Of a stretch of DNA of 39,375 nucleotides, positions 1-35,055 are shown one piece after another. The stretch is from sequence record MZ234024.1, one strand, 5' to 3'. The notes beneath the pieces were generated by a model, which did not search any database, was not told the DNA's origin, and worked only from the letters and a program-made list of their open reading frames with translations. How positions within the stretch are numbered: position 1 is the stretch's first letter; each line of letters opens with the position of its first letter. The stretch comes from Escherichia phage vB_EcoP-101136BS1. The translations under genes were made by a program, and so were the position numbers.

Positions 1-3000
1 ATGCAGGAACGAGAGGATCGCTCTACGTGGTTCGGTTTCGGCTCGGCTACAGAAGCTGAAGTGAAGAACTCTATGGTCGGCGTGGCTATCCGCGCTGGTC
101 AGACCGAGGACTCACTGGATGTCATTGGCGATGTGTTCAACCCAACCCGATGGAATAACCATAAGTGGTCTCGTGAGGAGCTGGACCAGATTCGTAACGC
201 TGGGGTTCTGCCTCAGTATTACGGAGTCATCACTGGTGGTTCCCCTCAGAACCTGACTGAGCTGATTAACTTGGCGCTTGAGAACCAGAAGTTGGACCAA
301 GAGAAGGCCAAGGCCGGGACTGGTGCTCAACTGGCGGCTGGTGTGATTGGTGCTGGCGTGGACCCTCTGACCTACGTTCCTATTGCTGGGCAGGTAGGTA
401 AAGGTGGGAAGCTAGTCAACAAGATGTTCACTGTGGCTGCTCAGTCTGGTGCTCTGGCTGGGGCATCCGAGATTGCTCGAACCTCAGTTGCTGGTGGGGA
501 CGCTCATGTGGCTGAGGCAATTATGGGCGGTGCTCTCTTCGGTGGGGGAATGACAGCTATCGGGGACGCTATCGGCAAGGCCTTAGGCAAGTCAACCAAC
601 GAGTTCGCCGGACCAGCCACACGTCTGGAAGCCCGTGAGACTGCACGTAATGTTGATGGTCAGGACCTGTCGCGTATGCCAATCCGTGAAGGAGAGGAGA
701 CCTTTAGTCATCAAGGTGTTAAGTTCGCAGACGTTCCGAACGAGCCGGGTAGTGTACGACTGGAAGATGGTTCAATCCTGATTGGTGAGAATCCTCTGAA
801 CCCTAAGACACGTAAAGTCTTTGACGAAGTGATTGAGCCTGAACGTGCCGCTGCTGGTGTGAACCTTGGTGGGCTGACTGAGATTGGCCTGAAGCTGCTT
901 CGGTCCGAGAACCCTGAGATTCGTGGAGTAGCTGCTGACTTAGTACGTTCACCGACTGGTATGCAGTCTGGGGCCTCAGGTAAAATAGGGACAACTGCGT
1001 CAGACGTATTCGAGAGACTTCGTGCTGTGGACCATCGGTTCTACAATGACATCGACGATGCGGTTACTGAGGCACTAAAGGACCCGTACTTCCAGACAGC
1101 ATTCTGGCGAGACTCTGGCGCATTCCGTCAAGACATCTATCAGCGCGTGTCTATGGCTATCGAAGATGGTAGCGGAAACCTGAAGGCTGAATTGACTCCG
1201 GGAGAACTGAAAGTCTATGACCTGCTGAAGAACCAGTTTGACGCCAAGCGTGAGATGATGGAGAACCCGGCGATGTTTGGTCGCCCAGACGCTCAGTCTA
1301 TCTTTCCGGGTAGCCGCTTCAAGGGAACATACGTCCCGCATGTGTATAGCAACCAGATGAAGGAGCTGTACATCAAGGAGCTTGGGAGTCCAGAGGCACT
1401 ACAGGAGGCCATCAAGAAGTCATGGTTGACCAGCTATGCGTCTCGACCTGAAGTCAAGAAACGTGTGGACGAGGCACTCTTAGAGGCTGACCCTACGTTG
1501 ACTCCAGAAGGACTTGCGGCTGCGGTCGATAAGTACGCCAACGATAAGGCTTATGGTATCTCTCACACCGAGCAGTTCGAGCGTTCATCCGTAATGGAAG
1601 AGAACATCAATGGTCTGGTGGGTCTGGAGAACAACAGCTTCCTTGAGGCTCGTAACCTGTTCGATAGCGATATGTCAATCGTCCTACCTAACGGTCAGAC
1701 CTTCAGTGTCAACAACCTGCGTGAGTGGGACATGGACAAGATTGTCCCGGCCTACAACCGTCGAGTTAATGGCGATATTGCTATCATGGCTGGTACAGGC
1801 AAGACCACGAAGGACATGAAGGACTTGGTTGAGACCCTGATGAACAAGGCTGGGGATGACGGTAAGTTGAAAGGTGAAGTATCTACATTACGTGACACTT
1901 TGAAGATTCTAACTGGTCGTGCTCGACGTGATGGTGCTGATGATGCGGCCTTCGCTACCGTGATGCGCACAATGACAGACCTATCGTTCTTCGCTAAGAA
2001 TGCCTACATGGGTGTTCAGAACTTAACGGAGATTGGTGGTATGCTGGCTCGTGGTAACGTTCGTGCAATGCTTCATGGAGTCCCAATTTTCCGTGACCTA
2101 GCCTTCCGTAACAAGAAGGTTGGGGCCTCAGAGATTAAGGACCTGCACAATGTTATCTTCGGTAAGGAACTGGATGACTCAATCCGTCCGTCTAAACAGG
2201 ATGTCATTGACCGTCTGCGATCTTACAGTGACCTCGGTCGTGGTACAGCTACAGCTCTGGGGACTGCCAAGTATTACACTGGCGAACTTGCAGTACGCTC
2301 TCCGTTCACTAAAGTCCTCAACGGTACGACCAACTACCTGTTAGATGCTGGACGTCAGGGCTTCCTGTCTGACATCGTGGAGCATAGCCTGACTGGTAGT
2401 AAGCGTAAGTTCGATGACCGCTGGCTGAAGACCGCTGGTATCTCTGACGAGCAGTGGAAGGGCATTAAGTCCCTAATCCGTGAGTCAGTGACTCGTGGTC
2501 CAGACGGGAAGTACACCATCAAGGATAAGAAGGCGTTCAGTCAGGACCCAAGGGCTATGGACCTCTGGCGTATGGGTGACACCATCGCTGATGAGACCCT
2601 GCTACGTCCCCACAAGCTGAGCAACATGGACGCCAAGGCTTATGGTCCGATAGCGAAGACTGTCTTGCAGTTTAAGAACTTCGTTATCAAGTCTATCAAC
2701 GGTCGAACCATGCGTACCTTCTACAATGCCACCAAGAACAACCGAGCTATGGACGCTGCGCTGTCAACGGTTATGTCTATGGGTCTGGCTGGAATGTACT
2801 ACATGGCTCAGGCGCACATAAAGGCTTACGCTATGCAGGACGGTCGTGACCGAGAGTATCTGAAGCAAGCCCTTAACCCAACAATGATTGGCTATGCGGC
2901 GCTGTCCCGTAGCTCCCACTTAGGTGGTCCTCTTGGGGTCGCCAACATTCTGGGTGGAATCGCTGGGTATGAGGACACTAAGATGCTCCGCTCGTCAATC

Positions 3001-3303
3001 CTTCCGCGCTCACCTACCGAGAAGACGGAGAAGCCAATCGCCTTTGGTGCTGCTTCCAGTGGTCCGGTAATGAATGTGGTCGGCAACTTCCTTGAGCAGG
3101 TCCCGGCTTTCGGCTATGCTGCTAACGTTGGTGCTACGGCTTACAACTTGGCGGGATACCTCAAGGCGGATACCCGTGTCAACGAGCGAGACTACATGAC
3201 CGGGATGTATAACACGTTCCGTGAACTTGTACCGAATGACCCGATTACCCAGAAGTTGCTGCTTGGAACGTTTGAGGAGCAGGGCATCCACATCAAGGAC
3301 TAA
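1..3303 (+). CDS. gp16: internal virion protein D (gp16), C-terminal 1100 codons; the 5' part of the same gene is at 38791..39375
   Basis: ORF is open from base 1 with no start. Translation shares long conserved blocks with T7 gp16 as recalled (LEARETARN, RSPTGMQSGASGK, RRVNGDIAIM, FFAKNAYMG, NGTTNYLLDA, DPRAMDLWR, ELVPNDP). Frame is continuous with the ORF running off the window end. Confidence 0.9.
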   Translation: MQEREDRSTWFGFGSATEAEVKNSMVGVAIRAGQTEDSLDVIGDVFNPTRWNNHKWSREELDQIRNAGVLPQYYGVITGGSPQNLTELINLALENQKLDQEKAKAGTGAQLAAGVIGAGVDPLTYVPIAGQVGKGGKLVNKMFTVAAQSGALAGASEIARTSVAGGDAHVAEAIMGGALFGGGMTAIGDAIGKALGKSTNEFAGPATRLEARETARNVDGQDLSRMPIREGEETFSHQGVKFADVPNEPGSVRLEDGSILIGENPLNPKTRKVFDEVIEPERAAAGVNLGGLTEIGLKLLRSENPEIRGVAADLVRSPTGMQSGASGKIGTTASDVFERLRAVDHRFYNDIDDAVTEALKDPYFQTAFWRDSGAFRQDIYQRVSMAIEDGSGNLKAELTPGELKVYDLLKNQFDAKREMMENPAMFGRPDAQSIFPGSRFKGTYVPHVYSNQMKELYIKELGSPEALQEAIKKSWLTSYASRPEVKKRVDEALLEADPTLTPEGLAAAVDKYANDKAYGISHTEQFERSSVMEENINGLVGLENNSFLEARNLFDSDMSIVLPNGQTFSVNNLREWDMDKIVPAYNRRVNGDIAIMAGTGKTTKDMKDLVETLMNKAGDDGKLKGEVSTLRDTLKILTGRARRDGADDAAFATVMRTMTDLSFFAKNAYMGVQNLTEIGGMLARGNVRAMLHGVPIFRDLAFRNKKVGASEIKDLHNVIFGKELDDSIRPSKQDVIDRLRSYSDLGRGTATALGTAKYYTGELAVRSPFTKVLNGTTNYLLDAGRQGFLSDIVEHSLTGSKRKFDDRWLKTAGISDEQWKGIKSLIRESVTRGPDGKYTIKDKKAFSQDPRAMDLWRMGDTIADETLLRPHKLSNMDAKAYGPIAKTVLQFKNFVIKSINGRTMRTFYNATKNNRAMDAALSTVMSMGLAGMYYMAQAHIKAYAMQDGRDREYLKQALNPTMIGYAALSRSSHLGGPLGVANILGGIAGYEDTKMLRSSILPRSPTEKTEKPIAFGAASSGPVMNVVGNFLEQVPAFGYAANVGATAYNLAGYLKADTRVNERDYMTGMYNTFRELVPNDPITQKLLLGTFEEQGIHIKD

Positions 3304-3321
3304 ACTATCACTATAGGAAAC
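3299..3321 (+). promoter_or_regulatory. phage RNAP promoter (phi17 position), CTAAACTATCACTATAGGAAAC
   Basis: One of 11 copies of the same ~20-nt motif with a TATAGG initiation region, placed just upstream of the tailspike gene as phi17 is in T7. Confidence 0.8.
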
Positions 3322-3367
3322 TGGAGGCGCTACCATAGGTCTCCGTTTAAATCACAAAGGAGGCATA

Positions 3368-5548
3368 ATGTCCACGATTACACAATTCCCTTCAGGAAAC
3401 ACTCAGTACAGGATAGAGTTCGACTACCTAGCCAGAACGTTTGTTGTTGTTACGCTGGTGAATAGCTCTAACCCTACCCTGAACCGTGTACTGGAAGTTG
3501 GTCGAGATTACCGATTCCTTAATCCAACGATGATTGAGATGTTGGCTGACCAATCAGGTTTCGACATCGTTCGTATTCACCGTCAGACTGGAACTGACTT
3601 AGTGGTAGACTTCAGGAATGGCTCAGTGTTGACAGCTAGTGACCTGACCAATTCAGAGCTTCAGGCTATCCATATTGCAGAAGAAGGTCGAGACCAAACG
3701 GTTGACTTAGCTAAGGAATATGCCGATGCTGCTGGTAGCTCTGCTGGCAACGCTAAGGATAGCGAGGACGAAGCACGCCGAATCGCTGCGAGTATCAAGG
3801 CAGCTGGTAAAATTGGCTATATTACCCGTCGCTCCTTCGAGAAAGGCTTCAACGTTACAACATGGAACGAGGTCCTGCTATGGGAAGAGGATGGTGATTA
3901 TTACCGCTGGGATGGTACGCTTCCAAAGAACGTTCCCGCTGGTTCAACTCCTGAATCATCTGGTGGTATTGGGCTGAGTGCGTGGGTTAGTGTTGGTGAT
4001 GCGTCACTTAGAGCAAACCTGGCTGATAGTGATGGCGCTAAATACATAGGCAGTGGAGAAAGGACATTACTTGAGCACAACAATGATGTTTTGCACTCAA
4101 AAGACTTTCCAACACTGCAGGCAGCTATAGATGCATCTTTGCAAAAAAATGATCTACTGGTGTCTCCTGGCAATTATACTGAAAAAGTTACTATTGGAAA
4201 CGCGCAGTTAAAAGGTGTTGGCGGGGCCACGGTACTAAAAACTCCGGCAGACTTTACAAACACTGTTCAGGTTAATTTAGCTACACCTCATTGGCAATTC
4301 CGCCATAGTGGTGGTTTTGCTATAGATGGTTCCGGGACAACCGGGGCCGTAGGTATTAGTTTTGACCCGTCAGACCAATATTCCGGACGTCATAATTTTA
4401 GTGATGTATACATCCACAACATCAACAAGGCCATTCAGAAGCCTTCCGGGAACATCGGCAATACTTGGAGAAATATTGGGATATCTACGTGTGATTGGGG
4501 GTATTACGCGATTAGTGGCTCAGAGATGCATTGCGGGGCCGATACCCTCTACAATATCCACTTCGATGGCATCTCCACCTATGCAGTCTATCTAGACGGC
4601 ACTGTCGATAATGGCGGGGGGGGCGCATGGTGGCTTAAAGACTCCATTATTGAGGCTTCCGGAGGTGGCGGGATATACTTAAAAAGTAAATCGGGCGACT
4701 GTCCTACATCTCCATGCGGGGTATCCAATATATGGATGGAAGCGATCGCAACATCACCGGCTGTTCAGGTAGACGGCGTGGCGCAAAAACCGCGAGTTCT
4801 CAAGTTGGTAGACACAGCGATATTCTTTGCTGAGTATTCTTATCTCAACAACATCGAGCTATCCAACTCCAACTTAGTAACTTATGGTTGCCGTTTTGAC
4901 AACGCTGATGGCAATCAGGATATTGTCGTGGATGCACAAAGTACCATTGTAGCCCATGACGTGTATTTAAACGGCAGTTCTGGAAAGGACGTTATTGTGG
5001 AGTCCGTAGCATCGCAATCTGCAACGATAGCTGCCACAAACTTATCTCTGAGGGGCAACTTAACAAGAGGGAGAGTATTTAATACGCCGACAGGGAATAA
5101 ATTAATGGCTATCACATTTGACTCAGGTAGCCATAATTTTTCTGGCAGCGGCACCGTTAACGGTTCGACTGTATCTGACGGACTTCACGCCGCTACATGT
5201 ACCGAATTTTCATTCCCCGGAGCCGGTTTATATGAAATGATAGCGACAAGAACAACCATTACATCCGGTAGATGGTACGTGTGGGGAGTTAACTCACGCC
5301 TACAATCTGGCTCGGCGGATATTAGTATAACGTTAGGTATTACCATGGGTAGTGTTTACACAAAGCCGGGGGAGTGGATTAGCACTTTCGGTGTAGGAAA
5401 GGCATCTACCACTGGCACTGTAGCGCTATACGTTTCCACAGGAGGAGGTTCGGGAGCTACGGTCAGATTCAGTGACTTTTTCATCGCTGAGTTTACGACG
5501 CAAGCTCAGGCTTTAGCTTTCGCCAATTCAAGGATGTCGTTATCATAA
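3368..5548 (+). CDS. gp17: tail fiber/tailspike (gp17) with T7-like N-terminal anchor and a long non-T7 C-terminal domain, possibly a beta-helix polysaccharide depolymerase
   Basis: Strong RBS AAAGGAGG upstream. N-terminal ~150 aa resemble the T7 gp17 adaptor region (EFDYLARTFVVVTL, LVDFRNGSVL). Remainder is Gly/Asn/Ser/Thr-rich with no T7 fiber similarity. Confidence 0.85.
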   Translation: MSTITQFPSGNTQYRIEFDYLARTFVVVTLVNSSNPTLNRVLEVGRDYRFLNPTMIEMLADQSGFDIVRIHRQTGTDLVVDFRNGSVLTASDLTNSELQAIHIAEEGRDQTVDLAKEYADAAGSSAGNAKDSEDEARRIAASIKAAGKIGYITRRSFEKGFNVTTWNEVLLWEEDGDYYRWDGTLPKNVPAGSTPESSGGIGLSAWVSVGDASLRANLADSDGAKYIGSGERTLLEHNNDVLHSKDFPTLQAAIDASLQKNDLLVSPGNYTEKVTIGNAQLKGVGGATVLKTPADFTNTVQVNLATPHWQFRHSGGFAIDGSGTTGAVGISFDPSDQYSGRHNFSDVYIHNINKAIQKPSGNIGNTWRNIGISTCDWGYYAISGSEMHCGADTLYNIHFDGISTYAVYLDGTVDNGGGGAWWLKDSIIEASGGGGIYLKSKSGDCPTSPCGVSNIWMEAIATSPAVQVDGVAQKPRVLKLVDTAIFFAEYSYLNNIELSNSNLVTYGCRFDNADGNQDIVVDAQSTIVAHDVYLNGSSGKDVIVESVASQSATIAATNLSLRGNLTRGRVFNTPTGNKLMAITFDSGSHNFSGSGTVNGSTVSDGLHAATCTEFSFPGAGLYEMIATRTTITSGRWYVWGVNSRLQSGSADISITLGITMGSVYTKPGEWISTFGVGKASTTGTVALYVSTGGGSGATVRFSDFFIAEFTTQAQALAFANSRMSLS

Positions 5549-5692
5549 AAACAACCTCAGCCGAATCGGGTTATTTATCATCAGAACGGTATTGAATCAT
5601 CGAAGGTTGTGGAGGTAGAGGCTAACTACACGTTGACCAACGTATGATAACAACTTTGGGTCACGGACGACCCGCTTTAAACTGGAGGTTTT

Positions 5693-5887
5693 ATGATTGA
5701 GTTAGACTTCAAGAATGAGGTCCTCAAAGCCTCGCCTATCGTCGGGACCGCTGCGGCTGATGGTGCCAGTCGGTTCTTCTTTGGGCTAACGCTCAACGAA
5801 TGGTTCTACGTCGCTGCTATCGCGTACACCGTGGTGCAGATTGGCGTCCTAATTTACAAGACGATTAAGAGCGGAGGTAAGACATGA
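5693..5887 (+). CDS. gp17.5: class II holin (gp17.5)
   Basis: 64 aa; near-identical block to T7 holin as recalled (FFGLTLNEWFYVAAIAYTVVQIG). Confidence 0.9.
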   Translation: MIELDFKNEVLKASPIVGTAAADGASRFFFGLTLNEWFYVAAIAYTVVQIGVLIYKTIKSGGKT

Positions 5888-6147
5888 CGCAGATGGACTT
5901 AGAGAAGTTCCTGTTAATGCTGGACACAGAACGTGCTAGACTAATGCTGCAAGACCTGCGGGATGACTCTAAGCGTTCGCCCCAGCTCTACAACGCCATT
6001 GAGAAGCTACTGGCTCGTCACAACTTCGTGCTAAGCAAGGTGTCTGTTGACGAGAAGACGCTCGCTGATATGGAGGCCCTGAACGCAGAGTACGATAAGG
6101 TGCTCTCCGCTACGGAAGATAATGACACTGGGTATGGAGTGCAGTAA
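5884..6147 (+). CDS. gp18: terminase small subunit (gp18)
   Basis: 87 aa; shares LMLDT and RSPQLYNAI with T7 gp18; start overlaps the holin stop. Confidence 0.85.
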   Translation: MTQMDLEKFLLMLDTERARLMLQDLRDDSKRSPQLYNAIEKLLARHNFVLSKVSVDEKTLADMEALNAEYDKVLSATEDNDTGYGVQ

Positions 6148-6160
6148 ATCTCTTAAGTGT

Positions 6161-6205
6161 TAGACTCAAGGTCATTACTGTGTGTAGTGGCCTTTATGGT
6201 TAACA
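6161..6205 (+). promoter_or_regulatory. conserved intergenic element GACTCAAGGTCAT...GTGGCCTTTATGGTTA, candidate RNase III site (T7 R18.5 position)
   Basis: Same motif recurs at 15320-15362 and 22385-22430, and in part at 11997-12012. AAGGTC and GGCCTT can pair with one G-U wobble. Confidence 0.45.
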
Positions 6206-6257
6206 CTAACTAGTGGAGGAGACTCTACGTGAAATCTGATAAACCGGGAGGGCAACT

Positions 6258-6707
6258 ATGCTCGAATTTTTAAAGAGAGCGGCTCCGTGGTTACTTGCAG
6301 CAGTGATGTTTGCTGGTGGCTACCGCACCGCTAACAATAAGTGGGAGGCTAAGGTCAATGCAGAATACACCTCGAATCTTAAGGCATCGGAAGATACAAG
6401 GCTTGCTGTCCAAGCTGAAGTCAACAAAGTGTCCAAACGGTTTCAGGACGAAATGTCCTCGCTGGAAGGCAGCACTGATAGGATTATTGCTGACCTTCAG
6501 TCTGACAATAAGCGGTTGCGCATCCGAGTCAAACCAACGAGTGGAACCACGCAAAGTGACGGTCGATGCTTCATTGATGGTTACGCCGAACTTGACGAAC
6601 GAGATGCTAAACGTCTTATCGCCATCGGAGTGAAAGGAGACAAGTGGATTAAGGCCCTTCAAGACACTGTGAGAGCCTTACAGCAAGAGAAGGAGGTGAC
6701 GCATTGA
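6258..6707 (+). CDS. gp18.5: Rz-like i-spanin (gp18.5)
   Basis: 149 aa; N-terminal membrane anchor; matches T7 gp18.5 ([29 protein letters not shown]). Confidence 0.85.
6358..6633 (+). CDS. gp18.7: Rz1-like o-spanin lipoprotein (gp18.7) embedded in the +1 frame of Rz
   Basis: Matches T7 gp18.7 ([18 protein letters not shown] lipobox, [10 protein letters not shown]). Start is uncertain; the open frame begins at 6310. Confidence 0.7.
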   Translation: MQNTPRILRHRKIQGLLSKLKSTKCPNGFRTKCPRWKAALIGLLLTFSLTISGCASESNQRVEPRKVTVDASLMVTPNLTNEMLNVLSPSE

Positions 6708-8467
6708 GTAAAGACTTAGTGGCGCGTCAGGCGCTAATGACTGCACGTATGAAGTCAGACTTCGTGTTCTTCCTGTTCGTCCTGTGGAAAGCTCTGTCGC
6801 TCCCAGTCCCTACTCGCTGTCAGATTGACATGGCGAAGAAACTATCGGCTGGGGACAACAGGCGCTTCATCCTACAAGCGTTCCGTGGTATAGGGAAGTC
6901 CTTCATTACGTGTGCCTTCGTTGTCTGGAAGCTATGGAACAACCCAGACTTGAAGTTCATGATTGTGTCGGCCTCAAAGGAACGAGCCGATGCTAACTCC
7001 ATCTTCATCAAGCGAATCATCGACCTCATGCCTCAGCTTCAGGAACTCAAACCTAAGCAGGGTCAGCGAGATGCGGTTATCAGCTTCGACGTTGGACCGG
7101 CTAAGCCAGACCACTCACCTTCGGTTAAGTCCGTTGGTATCACTGGTCAGTTGACTGGTAGTCGTGCTGACATCCTGATTGCCGATGACGTGGAGGTTCC
7201 GAACAACTCAGCGACTCAGGCTGCACGAGACCGTCTATCAGAGCTTGTGAAAGAGTTCGACGCTATCCTGAAGCCGGGAGGTACGATCATCTATCTGGGT
7301 ACTCCTCAGAACGAGATGACACTGTATCGTGAGCTGGAAGGTCGTGGGTACACCACTACTATCTGGCCCGCTCGTTATCCACGCGACAGGAAGGACTGGC
7401 AGTCTTACGGTGACCGTCTGGCACCGATGCTTCAGGCAGAGCTTGAAGAGGACCCTGAGTCCTTCTACTGGCGTCCGACTGATGAAGTACGCTTCGATGA
7501 TACGGACCTGAAGGAGCGTGAGCTGTCCTACGGTAAAGCTGGCTTCGCTCTACAGTTCATGCTTAACCCGAACCTGAGTGATGCTGAGAAGTATCCTCTT
7601 AAGCTCCGTGACCTTATCGTAGCCGACTTGGACCCAGCGTCCAGCCCAATGGTCTACCAATGGTTGCCAAACCCTCAGAACAAGCGTGAGGACGTTCCTA
7701 ACGTGGGACTCATGGGTGACTCGTACCACACGTATCAGACTGTAGGTTCTGCCTTCAGCTCATACACCCAGAAGATTCTGGTCATTGACCCTAGTGGTCG
7801 TGGTAAGGATGAAACTGGTTATGCGGTACTGTATCAGCTCAACGGCTACATCTTCGCTATGGAAGTAGGTGGTATGCGTGGTGGCTATGAAGACTCTACT
7901 CTGGAAGCACTGGCTAAGATTGGTCGTAAGTGGAAGGTCAACGAATACGTCATTGAGGGTAACTTCGGTGATGGTATGTACCTTGAGCTATTCAAGCCTG
8001 TAGCGGCCCGTATCCATCCTGCTGCTGTAACCGAAGTGAAGAGTAAGGGTCAGAAAGAACTCCGCATCTGTGACGTTCTTGAGCCTATCATGGGGTCTCA
8101 CCGACTTATCGTCAACGCTGCTGCTATCGTCCAAGACTATCAGACAGCCTCTGACAAGGATGGTGTTCGTAACCCTATCTACTCTCTCTTCTACCAGATG
8201 ACACGTATCTCTCGTGAACGTGGAGCCTTGGCACACGATGACCGACTTGATGCGCTAGCTATAGGTGTACAGTTCTTCGTTGAGTCTATGGCTAAGGATG
8301 CCAACAAGGGAGAACGTGAAGTCACTGAGGAGTGGCTGGAGGAACAGATGGAGAACCCACGGAAAGGCTTCGAGTCCATCCACACTGAGTTCTGGGACAA
8401 TGGGGTCCGGGTAACTCACAATACGGACGACGAGCTTGGACTAGGGTCATACGTTACGTTCCACTAG
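6704..8467 (+). CDS. gp19: terminase large subunit (gp19)
   Basis: 587 aa (T7 gp19 is 586); extensive identity including [69 protein letters not shown]. Confidence 0.95.
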
Positions 8468-8507
8468 CTGAATGAATAACTATAGGTGAAAGCTGCATGA
8501 ATAAGCA

Positions 8508-8530
8508 GGTAGTAACCTATAGTTACTACC
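8508..8530 (+). other. perfect hairpin GGTAGTAAC-CTATA-GTTACTACC downstream of gp19
   Basis: 9-bp perfect inverted repeat with a 5-nt loop, read directly from the sequence; no U-tract follows. Confidence 0.5.
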
Positions 8531-8561
8531 AGTCTAACATACTGTTTTACAAGGAGTTTGG

Positions 8562-8584
8562 ACTTAACTATCACTATAGGGAAG
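8562..8584 (+). promoter_or_regulatory. phage RNAP promoter near the genome right end (phiOR position), TTAACTATCACTATAGGGAAG
   Basis: Matches the window's promoter consensus including a GGG start. Confidence 0.75.
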
Positions 8585-8764
8585 ACCCCCGGTTACTTAT
8601 AGTATTACTGTAGTGAATATACATATGCAGACTTTATGCAAGACCTTAGGAGGCAGACTCCGAGTTCTTACCTAAGGCTTGCACCGATGGAAGGAGGGTG
8701 ATATTAATCATAATCCCTCCAATACAGATAGTCACCGACCATAGATACAGGAGGTATGTAGCAT

Positions 8765-8923
8765 ATGGCAAAGACCAAAGCTGTACTTAAAGCTCTGGCG
8801 ACCAATCGAGCTACATACAGGTTTCTTGCTGCTGTTCTACTTGCTGCTGGCGTTACTGCTGGAAGTCAGTGGGTCGGGTGGGTCGAGACTCTCGTATGTA
8901 CTCTGGTCTCTCAGTGTAATTAA
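8765..8923 (+). CDS. small hypothetical protein (gene 19.5 position), 52 aa
   Basis: AGGAGG RBS 10 nt upstream of the ATG. Hydrophobic core LAAVLLAAGVTAG. Below the ORF-track size cutoff; assignment is by position only. Confidence 0.4.
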   Translation: MAKTKAVLKALATNRATYRFLAAVLLAAGVTAGSQWVGWVETLVCTLVSQCN

Positions 8924-8956
8924 CGCAATCATGGTAACGATTCATGAGCGGAAGAC

Positions 8957-8999
8957 CTAAGGTCAGTACGTGGATAAAGACTCACTATACTGACCTTAG
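8957..8999 (+). repeat. 12-bp perfect inverted repeat CTAAGGTCAGTA / TACTGACCTTAG with a 19-nt spacer
   Basis: Seen directly; the spacer contains GACTCACTATA, a T7-type promoter core without a GGG start. Confidence 0.5.
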
Positions 9000-9084
9000 C
9001 TACTGTAGTCAAGGACTTTAGGTAACACCTTAAGAGAAGCTCACTTAGGGTCATCCTACTTATTGGTCTATCCTAGTGTCGCCT

Positions 9085-9126
9085 GACCTACGGTCCTTGA
9101 CCTACAGTGGCTGTGGCCTACAGTAG
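9085..9126. repeat. short direct repeats of (G)ACCTAC(A/G)GT, 3 copies
   Basis: GACCTACGGTC, GACCTACAGTG and GCCTACAGTAG within 42 nt; analogous to the CCTAAAG-type arrays at T7 genome ends. Confidence 0.5.
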
Positions 9127-9163
9127 TGACGATGAGTTTTGGACCAAAAGTTTGAGACCACAT

Positions 9164-9346
9164 CTCACACTTCAAGAACCTCAAGTCTCCCCATAGGCCC
9201 TCTTTAAGTCCAGACCAAAGGCCCTACCCCAGTCTATCATAAGGTTAGACCGATGGTCCAGACTTCAGGTCAACGATAGGTCTAGGCTATGGCTTAGGGA
9301 AGGACGATAGGTTGGGACTATGGGTCTTCTTTGAGTCTCTATCTGT
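9164..9346. repeat. candidate terminal-repeat region with the genome left end near TCTCACA (9164)
   Basis: TCTCACA followed ~29 nt later by CCCCATAGG, and ending near CTATCTGT, mirrors landmarks of the T7 160-bp terminal repeat as recalled. Boundaries cannot be fixed from a collapsed assembly. Confidence 0.3.
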
Positions 9347-9480
9347 ATAACCATAAGTCACAACCATAGGTCACAGCCTACCTCTCACAACCATAAGTCA
9401 TAACCTACAGTCTCACTAACCTACAGTCTCAACCATAAGACACCAACACCTACAGTCATAGACCTACAGTTAATAGACAC
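9335..9480. repeat. array of short direct repeats (ACCTACAGTC x4, ACCATAAG(T/A)C x3) in the left-end non-coding region
   Basis: Repeats read directly at 9403, 9417, 9447 and 9461, and 9351, 9379 and 9431. Confidence 0.6.
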
Positions 9481-9580
9481 AGGCTATAGACTTAAGGTCT
9501 AAGACATGTTAGTCAAAGACTATATCCTCTTACACCATGGGGCCGACGATAGCTTAATCAATATTATTTCAAATTACCTA

Positions 9581-9610
9581 TTGACTATAGGTCCAGACTA
9601 TGGCCTAATA
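9581..9610 (+). promoter_or_regulatory. candidate host sigma70 early promoter (T7 A1 position)
   Basis: TTGACT at 9581-9586 as in the T7 A1 -35; the -10 is weak (CCTAAT at 17-nt spacing). Downstream ACACGACACGG...AACCGGATA aligns with sequence after T7 A1. Confidence 0.4.
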
Positions 9611-9720
9611 GCTTCCGTCAACACGACACGGCAACAACCGGATAGTGAAGACGCCGGTCCGGTCCGGTTAAGTAGTCAGCCTGTAAGACATACGAACAAC
9701 AGGCAACCGACAGAAAGTAG

Positions 9721-9750
9721 TTGACAGGCAGTAACGACTTAAAGTAATAT
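9721..9750 (+). promoter_or_regulatory. candidate host sigma70 early promoter (T7 A3-like): TTGACA, 18 nt, TAATAT
   Basis: Consensus -35 and near-consensus -10, followed by GTACCACATCGAAAC, which matches the T7 A3 transcribed region. Confidence 0.65.
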
Positions 9751-9804
9751 GTACCACATCGAAACAACGGTGATGACCAACACTGAATGGTCTACCTGAA
9801 GTCC

Positions 9805-9850
9805 TCTGACTGAAGGGAATGCTCTTTAACAATCTGGATAAACTCTTAAT
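9805..9850 (+). promoter_or_regulatory. leader segment matching the T7 R0.3 RNase III site region (GCTCTTTAACAATCTGG)
   Basis: 17-nt identity with the T7 early leader sequence as recalled. Confidence 0.45.
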
Positions 9851-9863
9851 GTGCGCCGATAGC

Positions 9864-9920
9864 GACTAACTACAGGGCCTTTGAGTCTACATCTGAAGGC
9901 CCTGACTGATAGTCACTAAC
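9864..9920 (+). repeat. repeated structured element, copy 1 (ACTAACTACAGG ... GGCCCTGACTGATAGTCACTAAC); candidate RNase III site
   Basis: Contains hairpin AGGGCC-N18-GGCCCT. The 22-nt core recurs at 10216-10237 and 10944-10965, each ~30-45 nt upstream of an early start codon. Confidence 0.5.
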
Positions 9921-9936
9921 TTAAAGGATGGACACT

Positions 9937-10182
9937 ATGAAACACTTAAGCACAATCACTAATCGCAATGAAGTATTCGTGAACACTAAAGGTTATGCGT
10001 GGATTCAGCTTAAAGAGATGACAGGAGCGCGTCACCGTGTGGTAGTGCGCAAGGTATCAAGCAAGCAGTTCAGCAACTACAGCGTCGATACTGTGCGTAT
10101 AGACAACGAGACATACCTGATAGACTCGCAGATAACCGTGAGTCCTACAGTGGGCGTCTCAGCTCCTTATTTCGCTAACTGA
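9937..10182 (+). CDS. hypothetical early protein, 81 aa (first cistron after the host promoters)
   Basis: ORF-track frame 9928..10182; the second ATG at 9937 has better RBS spacing (AAAGGA, 8 nt). No similarity recognised. Confidence 0.55.
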   Translation: MKHLSTITNRNEVFVNTKGYAWIQLKEMTGARHRVVVRKVSSKQFSNYSVDTVRIDNETYLIDSQITVSPTVGVSAPYFAN

Positions 10183-10184
10183 GA

Positions 10185-10240
10185 GTGATTAACTACAGGT
10201 CGTTAGACTGATAGCGGCCTGACTGATAGTCACTAACACA
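10185..10240 (+). repeat. repeated structured element, copy 2; candidate RNase III site
   Basis: TTAACTACAGG can pair with CCTG(ACUGA)UAGU as an 8-bp stem with a bulge; core GGCCTGACTGATAGTCACTAAC. Confidence 0.5.
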
Positions 10241-10265
10241 TAATTAACTTTGAGAGGATATAACT

Positions 10266-10772
10266 ATGGAACGTAATGCTAACGCATACTATGAGCTGCT
10301 GGCTGCAACCGTTGAGGCATTTATCGAGCGTATTCAGTACGACCACCTGACTCAAGATGACGACTACAGCGATGCGCTGCATGAGGTCGTAGACGGTCAG
10401 GTTCCTCACTATTACCACGAGATTTTTACGGTGATGGCTGCTGATGGTATAGACAACGAGTTCGAAGACTCTGGGATGATACCTGAAACCAAGGACGTAA
10501 CGCGTATCCTACAAGCTCGCATCTATGAGGCACTTTATAACGACGTGTCTAATAGCTTGGATGTAGTCTGGTTTGAGGATGAAGAGGCAGACGAAGAGGA
10601 TGAATATTGGGTAGTTGACGCTAAAACAGGCGCAATAATTGTGCAAGCTGTAGCTCTTGAGGTCGCTACTGCATGTGCCAAGGTTAACTATGCGGCAGGT
10701 CGCCACCTGAAGGTGGAAGACACCAATGATAACGTAGTGTTCGACCCTGCGGCTGAGGACTGCGAGCGATGA
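10266..10772 (+). CDS. ocr: Ocr-like anti-restriction DNA-mimic protein (gene 0.3) with a ~50-aa C-terminal extension
   Basis: [45 protein letters not shown] is near-identical to T7 Ocr as recalled. T7 Ocr is 117 aa; this ORF is 168 aa, continuing past the acidic tail. Confidence 0.85.
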
Positions 10773-12069: not shown

Positions 12070-14751
12070 ATGAGCGTCATCTCTATTGACAAGCACGACT
12101 TCTCTGATGTGTCGAACGCCATTGAGCCGTTTAACCTACTGGCTGACCACTACGGGCAAGACCTTGCAGTCAAACAGCTTCAGCTTGAGCACGAGGCATA
12201 CACTGAAGGCGAGCGACGTTTCATCAAGAACCTTGAGAGACAGACTGAGCGAGGGGAACTGGCAGACAATCAGGTCGCCAAGCCTTTGATGCAGACTCTA
12301 GTCCCTAAGATTGCGCAAGCCGTCAAGGAGTGGCATGAAGGTCCAGACGGGAAGCTGTCAACCTCTCGTCCGAGCGTAGCGTTCACCATGTTGAGCACTG
12401 AAGAGAAGGCCGTAAAGGTCCGCTCTTTGCGCATCTCCTGCGAGTCTGCTGCGGTTATCATACTGAAGGTCATACTCTCCAAGCTGGTCAAGCCTGAAGG
12501 GATACCGATTACACCGATGGCCTCAGCGATAGGTCGCACACTTGAGGACGAAATCCGCTTCGGTCGCATCCGTGACAAGGAGAAAGAGCACTTCAAGAAG
12601 GCGATAGCTGATAACCTGAATAAGCGGGCCGGGGCGTCCTACAAGAAAGCCTACATGCAAGCGGTCGAGGCATCCATGCTGGAGCAAGGCCAACTGGAAG
12701 ATGCGTGGGGGACTTGGAGTCCGACCGAGGCTGTCCACGTTGGAATCAAGATGCTGGAGATTGTCATCCAGTCCACACAACTGGTCGAGCTTAAGCGTTA
12801 CGGTGCTGGCAATGCAGCGGCTGACGTTGAGATGGTCCACCTGTCAGACTTCTGGGTCAAGAAGATGGCACAACGAGGATTCAGCCTTGCGGGTATAGCT
12901 CCAGTCTACCAGCCTTGCGTCGTTCCACCTAAGCCGTGGACTGGTGTCGTAGGCGGTGGGTACTGGGCCAAAGGACGCAGACCATTACCACTGATTCGCT
13001 TAGGGTCTAAGTCTGCGGTAGCACGCTACGAAGACGTGTATATGCCTGAAGTCTATGACGCTGTGAACATCATTCAGAATACACCTTGGAAAGTGAACAA
13101 GAAGGTTCTGGAAGTGGTGAACATGGTCGAGAAGCTGAACAACACGCCTATTGATGACATCCCTCAGATGGAACCGCTGAAGCCTGAGGACTATGCGGGT
13201 GAGACTGAAGAAGAACTCAAGGCATGGAAGAAGGCTGCTGCTGGTATCTATCGCCGCGAGAAGGCCAGACAGTCACGAAGATTGTCACTGAGCTTTATCG
13301 TCAACCAAGCGAACAAGTTCTCTCAGTTCAAGGCCATCTGGTTCCCGTATAACATGGACTGGCGCGGTCGCGTCTACGCTGTGCCGATGTTCAACCCTCA
13401 GGGTAACGACATGCAAAAGGGTCTTCTGACTCTGGCAGTCGGTAAGCCTATTGGTGCTGATGGTTTCAAATGGCTGAAGGTCCACGGTGCAAACTGCGCG
13501 GGTGTCGATAAAGTCACCTTCGAGGAGCGTATCAAGTGGGTGGAAGATAACCACGACAACATCATGGCTGCTGCCAAGGCACCGATGGATAGCATTGAGT
13601 GGTGGGGCAAGTTAGACTCTCCGTTCTGCTTCCTAGCGTTCTGCTTCGAGTATGCTGGCGCAATGCACCACGGCTTGTCTTACTCCTGCTCGCTGCCGAT
13701 AGCGTTCGATGGGTCCTGCTCTGGGATTCAGCACTTCAGCGCTATGCTTCGCGACCACATCGGTGGACATGCAGTAAACCTGACGCCATCCGGTAAGGTC
13801 CAAGACATCTACCGCATCGTGTCTGACCGCATTGAGGAGGAGCTTAAAGTCCTACTGGTTAACGGTACGGACAACGAGATGGTAACTCACGAGGACAAGA
13901 AAACTGGTGAGATTACCGAGCGTCTCAAGCTGGGGACACGAGAGCTTGCCCGTCAGTGGCTGACCTACGGTATGTCACGAAAGGTCACTAAGCGTTCGGT
14001 CATGACTCTGGCCTACGGGTCGAAAGAGTACGGCTTCGCAGACCAAGTTTACGAGGACATCGTGATGCCAGCGATTGACTCAGGGTCTGGCGCTATGTTC
14101 ACTGAACCAAGCCAAGCATCTCGCTTCATGGCTAAGATGATTTGGGAAGCTGTGAGTGTGACCGTAGTTGCTGCGGTTGACGCGATGAAATGGCTTCAGG
14201 GTGCTGCCAAGCTGCTTGCTGCTGAAGTGAAGGACAAGAAGACTGGAGAAATCCTGAAGCCTTGTCTTCCGGTACACTGGGTCACACCTGATGGTTTCCC
14301 TGTCTGGCAGGAATACCGCAAGAAGGACACCACTCGTCTGAACCTGATGTTCTTAGGGTCATTCAACCTTCAGCCTACCGTCAACAAAGGCACGAAGAAA
14401 GAGCTGGACAAGCACAAGCAGGAGTCAGGCATTAGCCCGAACTTCGTCCACTCACAAGATGGTAGCCACCTGCGGAAGACTGTAGTCCACACTCACCGCA
14501 AGTATGGCGTGATGTCATTCGCAGTGATTCACGATAGCTTCGGGACCATCCCTGCTGACGCTGAGTATCTGTTCCGTGGTGTCCGTGAGACGATGGTCGA
14601 GACATACCGCGATAACGATGTGCTGCTTGACTTCTACGAGCAGTTTGAATACCAGCTTCATGAAAGCCAGCGCGACAAGTTGCCTGAGCTTCCGAAGAAA
14701 GGTAAACTGAATATCGAAGACATCTTGTCTTCAGACTTTGCATTCGCTTAA
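12070..14751 (+). CDS. gp1: single-subunit DNA-directed RNA polymerase (gene 1)
   Basis: 893 aa (T7 RNAP is 883); conserved C-terminus ...HDSFGTIPADA...DFAFA and specificity-loop region TRLNLMFLGSFNLQPT (T7: TRLNLMFLGQFRLQPT). Confidence 0.97.
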   Translation: MSVISIDKHDFSDVSNAIEPFNLLADHYGQDLAVKQLQLEHEAYTEGERRFIKNLERQTERGELADNQVAKPLMQTLVPKIAQAVKEWHEGPDGKLSTSRPSVAFTMLSTEEKAVKVRSLRISCESAAVIILKVILSKLVKPEGIPITPMASAIGRTLEDEIRFGRIRDKEKEHFKKAIADNLNKRAGASYKKAYMQAVEASMLEQGQLEDAWGTWSPTEAVHVGIKMLEIVIQSTQLVELKRYGAGNAAADVEMVHLSDFWVKKMAQRGFSLAGIAPVYQPCVVPPKPWTGVVGGGYWAKGRRPLPLIRLGSKSAVARYEDVYMPEVYDAVNIIQNTPWKVNKKVLEVVNMVEKLNNTPIDDIPQMEPLKPEDYAGETEEELKAWKKAAAGIYRREKARQSRRLSLSFIVNQANKFSQFKAIWFPYNMDWRGRVYAVPMFNPQGNDMQKGLLTLAVGKPIGADGFKWLKVHGANCAGVDKVTFEERIKWVEDNHDNIMAAAKAPMDSIEWWGKLDSPFCFLAFCFEYAGAMHHGLSYSCSLPIAFDGSCSGIQHFSAMLRDHIGGHAVNLTPSGKVQDIYRIVSDRIEEELKVLLVNGTDNEMVTHEDKKTGEITERLKLGTRELARQWLTYGMSRKVTKRSVMTLAYGSKEYGFADQVYEDIVMPAIDSGSGAMFTEPSQASRFMAKMIWEAVSVTVVAAVDAMKWLQGAAKLLAAEVKDKKTGEILKPCLPVHWVTPDGFPVWQEYRKKDTTRLNLMFLGSFNLQPTVNKGTKKELDKHKQESGISPNFVHSQDGSHLRKTVVHTHRKYGVMSFAVIHDSFGTIPADAEYLFRGVRETMVETYRDNDVLLDFYEQFEYQLHESQRDKLPELPKKGKLNIEDILSSDFAFA

Positions 14752-20491: not shown

Positions 20492-22195
<1,704 letters not shown>

Positions 22196-35003: not shown

Positions 35004-35026
35004 CCTTAACTATCACTATAGGGACT
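35004..35026 (+). promoter_or_regulatory. phage RNAP promoter (phi13 position) bracketed by a 10-bp inverted repeat
   Basis: CTTAACTATCACTATAGGGACT; flanked by GGGCCTATAG (34989-34998) and CTATAGGCCC (35026-35035). Confidence 0.8.
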
Positions 35027-35055
35027 ATAGGCCCTTAAGGTTATAAGGAGACTTT

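Follow-up and report, generated by a model that had tools for sequence, protein, structure and literature searches.

The window, i.e., the whole stretch of 39,375 nucleotides that was analyzed (Escherichia phage vB_EcoP-101136BS1, MZ234024.1), encodes the terminase large subunit (gene 19, 587 aa) at 6704-8467 on the plus strand. The protein matches phrog_38 (E = 1.3e-131), and the gene is ~94.6% identical to the gene 19 region of phage K1F at the nucleotide level. The gene 19 stop at 8467 is the start of the region 8468-9580, which is placed between the late end of the genome (genes 19 and 19.5) and the host early promoters with the first early gene. An RNA polymerase ORF at 12070-14751 is aligned to K1F gene 1. 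The original prediction described the ~1.1 kb after gene 19 as almost entirely non-coding and as the probable site of the physical genome ends and the terminal repeat. The elements it listed are all present, each at or no more than 1-2 nt from its predicted position. About 86% of the region is indeed non-coding, but gene 19.5 had been overlooked.

Just 3' of gene 19, a stem-loop region at 8477-8530 on the plus strand can adopt two mutually exclusive folds. The perfect 9-bp stem that had been proposed, GGTAGTAAC-CTATA-GTTACTACC at 8508-8530 (8508-8516 and 8522-8530), is present and folds with z = -3.8 against shuffles. However, the wider context and the alignment prefer a competing 11-bp pairing between 8477-8487 and 8515-8525, which is accompanied by an inner stem (8491-8496 and 8505-8510). 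In the minimum free energy structure of 8465-8545, it is the long-range pairing that forms (z = -3.1). The consensus fold of the alignment is also the long-range stem, with compensatory changes in 7 of the 17 pairs (n = 8), whereas the local 9-bp hairpin is 87% paired with little covariation. A role in RNA, at the 3' terminus of the gene 19 transcript, is probable for this stem-loop. A terminator at 8508-8530 was considered and rejected, as the T-rich tail is found on the minus strand only. The Rfam search of 8300-10300, with E-values up to 1, returned no family.

The phage RNA-polymerase promoter expected at 8562-8584 was confirmed. The motif (C/T)TAA(A/G)CTATCACTATAGG occurs nine times in the window, on the plus strand in every case, and this promoter is one of the copies. 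The promoter carries the phage's own 23-bp consensus and lies about 100 bp after gene 19; the predicted +1 (G8579) is 112 bp past the gene 19 stop, compared with 99 bp in T7. It is 99% conserved across relatives and is the positional equivalent of the phiOR promoters annotated in T7, T3, and K11.

Gene 19.5 follows at 8765-8923 on the plus strand. It encodes a small hydrophobic protein of 52 aa, supported by phrog_2193 (E = 5e-24) and by T7 gp19.5 in BLASTP (E = 6e-5), and the TYRFL motif is shared with T7 gp19.5. The nucleotide sequence is 95-100% conserved over most of its length. It is the only supported coding sequence inside 8468-9580; the ORF starting at 9506 is doubtful.

The inverted repeat predicted at 8957-8999 was found as described and is capable of forming a hairpin or a cruciform. 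Its 12-bp arms, CTAAGGTCAGTA (8957-8968) and TACTGACCTTAG (8988-8999), are 100% complementary, and the 19-nt loop contains an inner stem of 3-4 bp. The element starts 34 bp after the gene 19.5 stop, and 185 bp separate its center at 8978 from the terminal repeat to its right. The fold is stable as DNA (z = -4.8). A search of IMG/VR with a degenerate gene 19.5 anchor gave 38 loci; 18 of them proved unrelated and were left out. Because the arms never vary, no covariation is seen inside the genus. A T7-type promoter in the loop, GACTCACTATA, was rejected: relatives read CACTC there, and the +1 would be C. Directly right of the inverted repeat, a conserved block, CTACTGTAGTCAAGGACTTTAGGTAACACC, occupies 9000-9030; its core, TA(G/C)AGTCAA...TAAAGGT.A.ACC, is common to T7, T3, and K11, and positions 9000-9019 show 99.7% identity across relatives.

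Judged by its position, the inverted repeat is the counterpart of the T7 palindrome at 39568-39608, and likewise of those in T3 and K11, with a different sequence. These palindromes are 190, 184, and 145 bp left of the respective repeats in T7, T3, and K11. They are imperfect and were found by a repeat search; stricter hairpin scoring did not recover them. The T7 and T3 palindromes fold identically despite sequence changes, and all four elements, including that of the window, fold as DNA hairpins (z from -2.4 to -4.8). The element of the window thus shares the size (~41-45 nt), the place shortly after gene 19.5, and the distance of 145-190 bp to the repeat. No sequence similarity to the T7/T3/K11 element (AGGGATTC...CATCCCT) was detected, and only the flank GTAGTCAA...TTTAGGTAACACC is common. 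Chung, Nardone and Hinkle reportedly described, in 1990, a hairpin-forming palindrome left of the T7 concatemer junction and a covalently closed hairpin DNA end during infection. The T7 hairpin model, which ties the palindrome to a hairpin-primed duplication of the repeat, is itself a proposal.

It is possible, but rather unlikely, that the hairpins at 8508-8530 and 8957-8999 both act in RNA only, as 3' stabilizers, RNase III sites or late terminators, and not in DNA end processing. Both are on transcripts from the late promoters and phiOR, and 8957-8999 is a good RNA fold (z = -3.9) as is 8508-8530 (z = -3.8). The compensatory changes after gene 19 are typical of RNA structure, and a consensus scan reports a terminator-like site at 8508-8530, on the minus strand only. 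For 8508-8530, action in RNA only is the preferred reading. Against the same role for 8957-8999, neither hairpin is followed by a U-tract on the plus strand, and the region has no Rfam family. Its arms are invariant in DNA in ~22 Kayfunavirus loci, but three exchangeable alleles of the loop occur, and each allele forms a separate inner stem. The distance between the inverted repeat and the terminal repeat is nearly fixed, mostly 182-195 bp with one locus of 155 bp, even where ORFs are inserted upstream. A palindrome is retained in the corresponding position in T7, T3, and K11, and a DNA hairpin end has been reported for T7; according to PMC4281155 and PMC5923468, a hairpin containing the repeat was found in T7 infection, and the repeat must be duplicated. 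The inverted repeat at 8957-8999 is better read as the counterpart of the T7 palindrome than as an RNA signal.

Short direct repeats are present on both sides of the terminal repeat. The arrays had been predicted at 9085-9126 and 9335-9480, and units were confirmed at 9086-9124 and 9350-9470. The first array, on the side of the right end, consists of ACCTACGGT, ACCTACAGT, and GCCTACAGT at 9086-9124 (plus strand) with spacing of 14 and 16 nt, and is the counterpart of the T7 SRR repeats, CCTAAAG. The second, on the side of the left end, has eight units of the ACCATAAGT / ACCTACAGT type at 9350-9470 (plus strand) with a period of 13-16 nt, and is the counterpart of the T7 SRL repeats. Tandem Repeats Finder (TRF) reported a period of 13 and seven copies for this array. 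Exact ACCTACAGT occurs eight times in the whole window, with five copies within 9100-9470; allowing up to one mismatch, 39 matches were found against 10.8 expected. The generalized unit ACC-W-W-H-R-G-W occurs 12 times in 9000-9500, and eight of these are at 9350-9470 with spacing of 13-16 (27) nt (P ~3e-13). No such unit is found inside 9163-9340; the arrays flank the terminal repeat and never enter it. The stretch 9350-9470 is the most indel-prone among relatives, and identity drops to 28-41% in 9360-9399 through gain and loss of units.

The region matches 223 phage records, mostly from Kayfunavirus together with Escherichia or Salmonella phages, with identity up to 97%. In the alignment, the window and K1F are co-linear throughout, with the window circularly permuted relative to K1F. 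Positions 1-9339 of the window correspond to K1F 29294-39699, the right end of K1F, and the window from 9163 onward corresponds to K1F from position 1 onward. Both K1F ends match window 9163-9339 at ~95% identity. When the end of the window is joined to its start, the sequence runs on without a gap within K1F gene 16. Identity to K1F is ~95% for the terminase as well as for the whole genome.

The terminal repeat, ~178 bp in length, is present once in the window, as a single collapsed copy at 9163-9340. It starts with TCTCACAC and ends in ...GAGTCTCT, with uncertainty at the right edge of 9339-9344. The predicted genome ends fall mid-sequence only because the genome was assembled as circular, with a single repeat copy retained. 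K1F, SH3, and SH4 have been deposited as linear records that include terminal repeats. Their left boundaries all fall on window 9163; the TCTCACA landmark is present as predicted, but starts at 9163 rather than 9164. The right boundaries fall on 9339 (K1F), 9344 (SH3), and 9340 (SH4), just before ATCTGTA, and the right landmark expected near 9346 was recovered as CTATCTGT at 9339-9346. Other isolate records finish in ...GAGTC(T/C)CT, and the deposited repeat lengths across the genus range from 178 to 196 bp. The ends of virion DNA from Citrobacter phages SH3, SH4, and SH5 were reported from run-off Sanger sequencing, with repeats of 184 bp in SH3 and 191 bp in SH4 (PMC4925675). PMC4925675, in which Scholl and Merril 2005 is cited, gives the K1F repeat as 179 bp.

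The boundary sequences were compared with those of T7, T3, and K11. The MAFFT cross-genus alignment misplaced the right boundary of the repeat, and so the boundaries were compared by direct inspection. The pattern examined was a left end in which ...A is followed by TCTCACAG, and a right edge in which ...C(C/T)CT is followed by ATCTGT. In T7, T3, and K11, the left boundary is between ...A and TCTCACAG, reading TCTCA(C/T)AG on inspection, and the right boundary is between ...CCCT, within GTGTCCCT, and ATCTGTT. The window has the same organization, with GAGACCACA followed by TCTCACAC at the left boundary and GAGTCTCT followed by ATCTGTA at the right boundary. The flank of the right-end cutting site, ACCAAAAGTTTGAGACCACA at 9143-9162, directly precedes the repeat and is 99% conserved in loci that were chosen with an anchor overlapping 9143-9162. 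The left flank pattern, AAA(A/G)T(C/T)TGA(G/A)-6 nt-A before TCTCA, is the same in T7, T3, and K11. In T7, the sole essential loci at the genome ends are those hit by insertions at positions 142 and 162, where the left repeat finishes (PMC11482910).

The permutation relative to K1F, the mapped ends of SH3 and SH4, and the boundary pattern shared with T7, T3, and K11 all support the original proposal that the physical ends and the terminal repeat are probably within 8468-9580. It is very likely, from these sequence comparisons, that the region is a T7-type concatemer junction of a K1F-like phage (Kayfunavirus, Studiervirinae) in a circularly permuted assembly with one copy of the terminal repeat. 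Such a junction type is already known and ordinary for the T7 group, and raises no new question that would surprise specialists. The exact boundary of the repeat in this phage is inferred by homology, within ~4 nt.

The junction may be here while this phage has exact ends other than those known for K1F, SH3, and SH4, with its repeat being longer, shorter or shifted owing to the G-to-C change at repeat base 8 or to indels inside the repeat. The variation in repeat lengths (178-196 bp) and in right boundaries (9339-9344) in the genus is consistent with such a shift. So are the middle of the repeat, 9240-9300, which is conserved at only ~70-74% among relatives, and base 8, which is C here and G in 20 of the 21 relatives, making TCTCACAC a rare start (1 of 21). 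However, the two cutting contexts, GAGACCACA before TCTCACA and GAGTCTCT before ATCTGTA, are intact, and no other part of the junction is as well conserved, whether in the genus or across T7, T3, and K11. Shifted ends are considered improbable. Headful packaging of circularly permuted DNA, with the region being merely intergenic and regulatory or the ends being elsewhere, would fit a window that is itself permuted and lacks a duplicated repeat, but is extremely improbable, given that the ~95% identical K1F is linear with the exact 178-bp repeat in two independent records (NC_007456 / NC_007636), that the ends of SH3-SH5 were read directly (PMC4925675), and that the permutation break lies inside gene 16, as expected of an assembler artefact. 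The ends at 9163 and ~9340 remain the preferred reading.

The first bases after the repeat are ATCTGTA at 9341-9347 (plus strand), a 6/7 match to ATCTGTT, the core of the T7 class II pause/termination signal. Its position, at the right edge of the repeat, is the one expected of the class II signal. ATCTGTA is unique on the plus strand of the window and is present in 18 of 18 Kayfunavirus junctions, and ATCTGTT is present in T7, T3, and K11. The K11 record labels the same spot as 'concatemeric junction'. The class II signal at the concatemer junction is described in bioRxiv 10.1101/2021.01.11.426313 and in 10.64898/2026.02.12.705533, the latter for the motif definition. The strict heptamer, ATCTGTT preceded by A, C or T, is not found at this place, where the window reads T-ATCTGTA. 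Any base change in ATCTGTT is reported to abolish class II termination by T7 RNA polymerase (bioRxiv 10.1101/2021.01.11.426313). Because of this reported intolerance, pausing of the K1F-type polymerase at ATCTGTA is only putative.

The start of the early region is marked by an A1-like host (sigma-70) promoter at 9581-9609 on the plus strand, read from the sequence as TTGACT, a 17-nt spacer, and CCTAAT. It is conserved in K1F and SH3, and SH4 has the form TTGACA-17-TTTAAT; T7 and T3 annotate A1 at the equivalent place. This promoter is missing from the output of the consensus scan because its -10 element does not have A at position 2. A second, A2/A3-like host early promoter at 9721-9750 on the plus strand (TTGACA, 18-nt spacer, TAATAT) was found by the consensus scan with 10/12 matches.

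The first base of the linear virion DNA would be 9163 (TCTCACAC...) and its last ~9340 (...GAGTCTCT), with ~178 bp at both ends and a physical genome of ~39.55 kb. The right-end side carries gene 19, the stem-loop, phiOR, gene 19.5, the inverted repeat, and a few short repeats, and the left-end side carries ATCTGTA, the 13-16-nt repeat array, and the host early promoters. If the T7 model holds, replication would generate head-to-tail concatemers in which each junction contains a single repeat. The junction would be marked in part by transcripts that cross it from phiOR, with the polymerase pausing at the ATCTGT motif. The inverted repeat ~185 bp to the left would supply a fold-back hairpin that primes synthesis through the repeat. 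The single repeat would thus be duplicated, so that each neighboring genome receives a copy, and the terminase (gp18/gp19) with the prohead would mature the ends at the conserved boundary sequences.

More tentatively, Kayfunaviruses might process the junction with T7-equivalent signals of different specificity, namely the ATCTGTA variant of the pause signal and a hairpin unrelated in sequence; this is doubtful at present. If true, the K1F-type RNA polymerase would recognize ATCTGTA, and class II signals would have a second specificity in nature. Invariant arms of 11-12 bp with three swapped loop alleles would then suggest a site of protein recognition or nicking, and not a mere fold-back primer. 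The value of the finding is mainly practical: the sequence is a mis-linearized assembly, short of one copy of the terminal repeat. Re-opening the genome at 9163 and appending ~178 bp at the right end would permit correct annotation, comparison, and engineering. K1F-like phages retain the T7 junction layout, including at elements whose sequences have been replaced, and this comparison lends modest support to the model in which ends are formed by way of a hairpin and a pause.

Compared with K1F and SH3-SH5, the window is ~95% identical across the junction; the left end, the right-edge context, the phiOR promoter, gene 19.5, the arms of the inverted repeat, and the repeat arrays on either side are all shared. 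It differs from that group in the loop allele of the inverted repeat, in C at repeat base 8, in the number of units at 9360-9400, and in its deposition or assembly as a permuted circle that has the repeat only once. K1F and SH4 have a small extra ORF between gene 19.5 and the inverted repeat, which the window does not have.

The comparison with T7, T3, and K11 shows differences mainly in sequence. No consensus copy of phiOL was found by the motif scan between the repeat and A1, unlike in T7, T3, and K11, and there are two obvious host early promoters rather than three. The T7 repeat is 160 bp, and the repeat sequence of the window is largely different from it. The palindromes are unrelated in sequence (CTAAGGTCAGTA in the window and AGGGATTC...CATCCCT in T7), the motif after the repeat is ATCTGTA instead of ATCTGTT, and the short-repeat unit is ACCTACAGT / ACCATAAGT instead of CCTAAAG. 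In contrast, the order of elements is the same in all: phiOR, gene 19.5, palindrome, short repeats, terminal repeat, ATCTGT motif, and short repeats. As in T7, T3, and K11, the left end TCTCACA(G) is preceded by AAA(A/G)T(C/T)TGA(G/A)-6 nt-A, the repeat is directly followed by ATCTGT, the short-repeat arrays are outside the repeat only, and the TA(G/C)AGTCAA block is right of the palindrome. The distances are T7-like as well, with 30-34 bp between gene 19.5 and the palindrome, which is 185-190 bp to the left of the repeat.

Both the junction region and the entire window matched Kayfunavirus phages (K1F-like, Autographiviridae/Studiervirinae). For window positions 8400-9950, 223 matching phage records were found, with a top identity of 97%. 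The whole-length comparison with the coliphage K1F showed that the two sequences are co-linear as a circular permutation. Window positions 1-9339 correspond to the right end of K1F (29294-39699), the sequence from 9163 onward corresponds to K1F from position 1 onward, and positions 9163-9339 align with both K1F ends. The last 400 nt and the first 400 nt of the window, when joined, are contiguous within K1F gene 16. With T7-like phages, short-read assemblers are known to keep only one of the two direct terminal repeats and to open the contig anywhere (PMC10438801; PMC9503643). The mid-sequence place of the junction is an assembly convention, and the feature is a terminal-repeat junction of the K1F/T7 type, previously described.

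The terminal repeat is exact and 178 bp long in two independent K1F records, and its boundaries fall at 9163 (left) and 9339 (right) of the window. In the Citrobacter phages SH3 and SH4, whose ends were determined by run-off sequencing on virion DNA (PMC4925675), the repeats are 184 bp and 191 bp; their left boundaries are also at 9163, and their right boundaries are at 9344 and 9340, respectively. Further isolate records terminate in ...GAGTC(T/C)CT. The boundaries (↓) common to T7, T3, and K11, which belong to other genera, are ...A↓TCTCA(C/T)AG on the left and GTGTCCCT↓ATCTGTT on the right. Following this rule, the repeat of the window is placed by homology at 9163-9340 (178 bp; GAGACCACA↓TCTCACAC...GAGTCTCT↓ATCTGTA), and the physical genome would be ~39,553 bp. 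The original prediction that the physical ends and the terminal repeat lie within 8468-9580 is supported by homology with the K1F, SH3, and SH4 boundaries. Both of its landmarks are present, with CTATCTGT at 9339-9346, but TCTCACA begins at 9163, one base before the predicted position.

Position 8 of the repeat (window 9170) is C (TCTCACAC), as in only one of 21 relatives. It is G in the other 20 related junctions, and also in T7 and K11; T3 has TCTCATAG. In the conservation profile across relatives, the most constrained parts are the phage promoter phiOR, the core of gene 19.5, 9000-9019, and 9140 to about 9200, the last of which covers the cutting-site flank and the initial 40 bp of the terminal repeat. 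Conservation is ~70% in the middle of the repeat, and the left-hand short-repeat array is the most variable part of the junction.

The predicted short-repeat arrays are real. Five of the eight exact copies of ACCTACAGT in the 39 kb searched lie within 9100-9470, and 39 matches with at most one mismatch were observed against 10.8 expected. A generalised form of the repeat unit has eight copies at 9350-9470, spaced by a period of 13-16 nt, and another two or three at 9086-9124 (P about 3e-13). TRF likewise recovered the 9350-9470 array (period 13, 7 copies). There is no occurrence of this unit inside the terminal repeat (9163-9340). The high indel rate of the arrays suggests weak constraint.

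The 12-bp inverted repeat (8957-8968/8988-8999) is perfect, as had been predicted. Across about 22 Kayfunavirus loci its 11-12-bp arms are invariant, and three loop alleles are observed, each with its own inner stem of 3-4 bp. The distance from the inverted repeat to TCTCACA is 182-195 bp, also where small ORFs are inserted upstream, and 155 bp in one locus. The T7 palindrome (39568-39608) has 19-nt arms, 79% complementary, and its centre is 190 bp left of the repeat; the distance is 184 bp in T3, 145 bp in K11, and 185 bp in the window. T7 and T3 palindromes have an identical dot-bracket fold although several paired positions differ. The window palindrome shows no sequence similarity to those of T7, T3, and K11. 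The block directly right of it (GTAGTCAAGGACTTTAGGTAACACC) is common to T7, T3, and K11, which ties the palindrome positions in the four phages together.

The loop of the inverted repeat (8972-8994) holds GACTCACTATA, which equals the T7 promoter, not the K1F-type one, from -11 to -1 and is followed by C, not G. This is probably a coincidence, because relatives with the same loop allele carry CACTC, not CACTA. A leftward sigma-70-like promoter on the minus strand (9012-8984; TTGACT-17-TATAGT, 10/12 matches) overlaps the right arm and loop; in relatives its -10 is changed to TAGAGT. The leftward promoter A0 of T7 and T3 is located elsewhere.

Downstream of gene 19, the predicted 9-bp hairpin GGTAGTAAC/GTTACTACC exists at 8508-8530 (fold z = -3.8). 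An alternative 11-bp pairing (8477-8487/8515-8525) uses some of the same bases and is the one adopted when the wider context is folded thermodynamically. The 11-bp pairing also appears in the consensus fold computed from eight distinct relatives, a small sample, with compensatory changes in 7 of 17 pairs. The local hairpin shows little covariation; one divergent relative favours it. The predicted phage promoter at 8562-8584 is one of nine plus-strand copies of (C/T)TAA(A/G)CTATCACTATAGG and is 99% conserved among relatives. Its predicted +1 lies 112 bp past the stop codon of gene 19, at the place annotated as phiOR in T7, T3, and K11. Between phiOR and gene 19.5, there is another hairpin (8693-8720, GGAGGG-TGAT-ATTA-ATCA-TAA-TCCCTCC). 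Its outer stem is GGAGGT...ACCTCC in K1F-type relatives, a G-C to T-A change that looks compensatory by eye, and the T7 sequence at the corresponding position is GGTGAT...ATCACC. Support for this hairpin from the consensus fold is weak (-4.7 kcal/mol, compensatory change in 1 of 11 pairs, positive covariation term). The hairpin may serve RNA processing or the translation of gene 19.5.

The region had been regarded as almost entirely non-coding, which overlooked gene 19.5 (8765-8923), a conserved coding sequence (phrog_2193, E = 5e-24; T7 gp19.5, E = 6e-5). Many relatives (L016, L017, L020, L025, L026, L027, and K1F, L002) have an extra small ORF between gene 19.5 and the inverted repeat (8923-8957). 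Translation by eye distinguished three or more unrelated versions, some 10 to 40 codons long, for example MDEESYGSFSEEDYKTEWEYAH in K1F; the window itself has no such ORF. This site is an insertion hot-spot, and the spacing between the inverted repeat and the terminal repeat is unaffected. A 72-aa ORF at 9506-9724 (plus strand; phrog_30192), which one K1F record annotates as gp0.1, extends across the A1-like host promoter. It is doubtful as a real gene, because it lies upstream of every early promoter.

In the window, as in 18 of 18 Kayfunavirus junctions, the repeat is followed by the heptamer ATCTGTA. T7 RNA polymerase pauses at the class II signal ATCTGTT of the concatemer junction (bioRxiv 10.1101/2021.01.11.426313; 10.64898/2026.02.12.705533), and any change in ATCTGTT reportedly abolishes class II termination (bioRxiv 10.1101/2021.01.11.426313). 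ATCTGTA thus falls outside the strict class II signals, which require ATCTGTT. The exact T7 heptamer is found on the plus strand of the window only at 14567, within gene 1 (12070-14751) close to its 3' end, and at 20697. No consensus promoter corresponding to phiOL of T7, T3, and K11 is present between the repeat and A1, the first host early promoter. By direct reading, a host promoter lies at 9581-9609 (TTGACT-17-CCTAAT), conserved in relatives; a consensus scan gave the second and last clear one at 9721-9750. The RNA-polymerase ORF, gene 1, is preceded at about 80 bp by a consensus phage promoter (11973-11995, CTTAACTATCACTATAGG); T7 is not known to have one at the equivalent position. At 35015-35030, a promoter core (~35015) runs straight into another ACTATAG (CACTATAGGGACTATAGG), so that part of the initiation region is duplicated in tandem.

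The identity, position, and conservation of these elements were observed directly, and their working is extrapolated from the T7 system. Chung, Nardone and Hinkle in 1990 reportedly found a T7 hairpin end ~190 bp left of the mature right end, which is the site of the palindrome. As in T7, concatemers would carry a single repeat per junction. The repeat has to be duplicated in T7-type packaging (PMC5923468; PMC10438801), and a repeat-containing hairpin is seen in T7 infection (PMC4281155, citing Chung and Hinkle papers). The only essential loci at the T7 genome ends are those of insertions at positions 142 and 162 (PMC11482910). From these data on duplication, hairpin, pausing, and essential loci, 8957-8999 is probably the fold-back primer or nicking site in repeat duplication, 9143-9170 and 9330-9347 are probably the end-maturation contexts, and phiOR probably drives transcription across the junction.

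The window and T7 share the same order of elements: gene 19, a ~100 bp spacer, phiOR, gene 19.5, a ~30 bp spacer, the palindrome, short repeats, the terminal repeat, ATCTGT, a short-repeat array, and host early promoters. The window differs from T7 in having ATCTGTA for ATCTGTT, no phiOL, only two clear host promoters, and C at base 8 of the repeat. What remains of mild interest is the ATCTGTA variant and a palindrome at the T7 position with another sequence, whose arms are invariant and whose loops are swapped.
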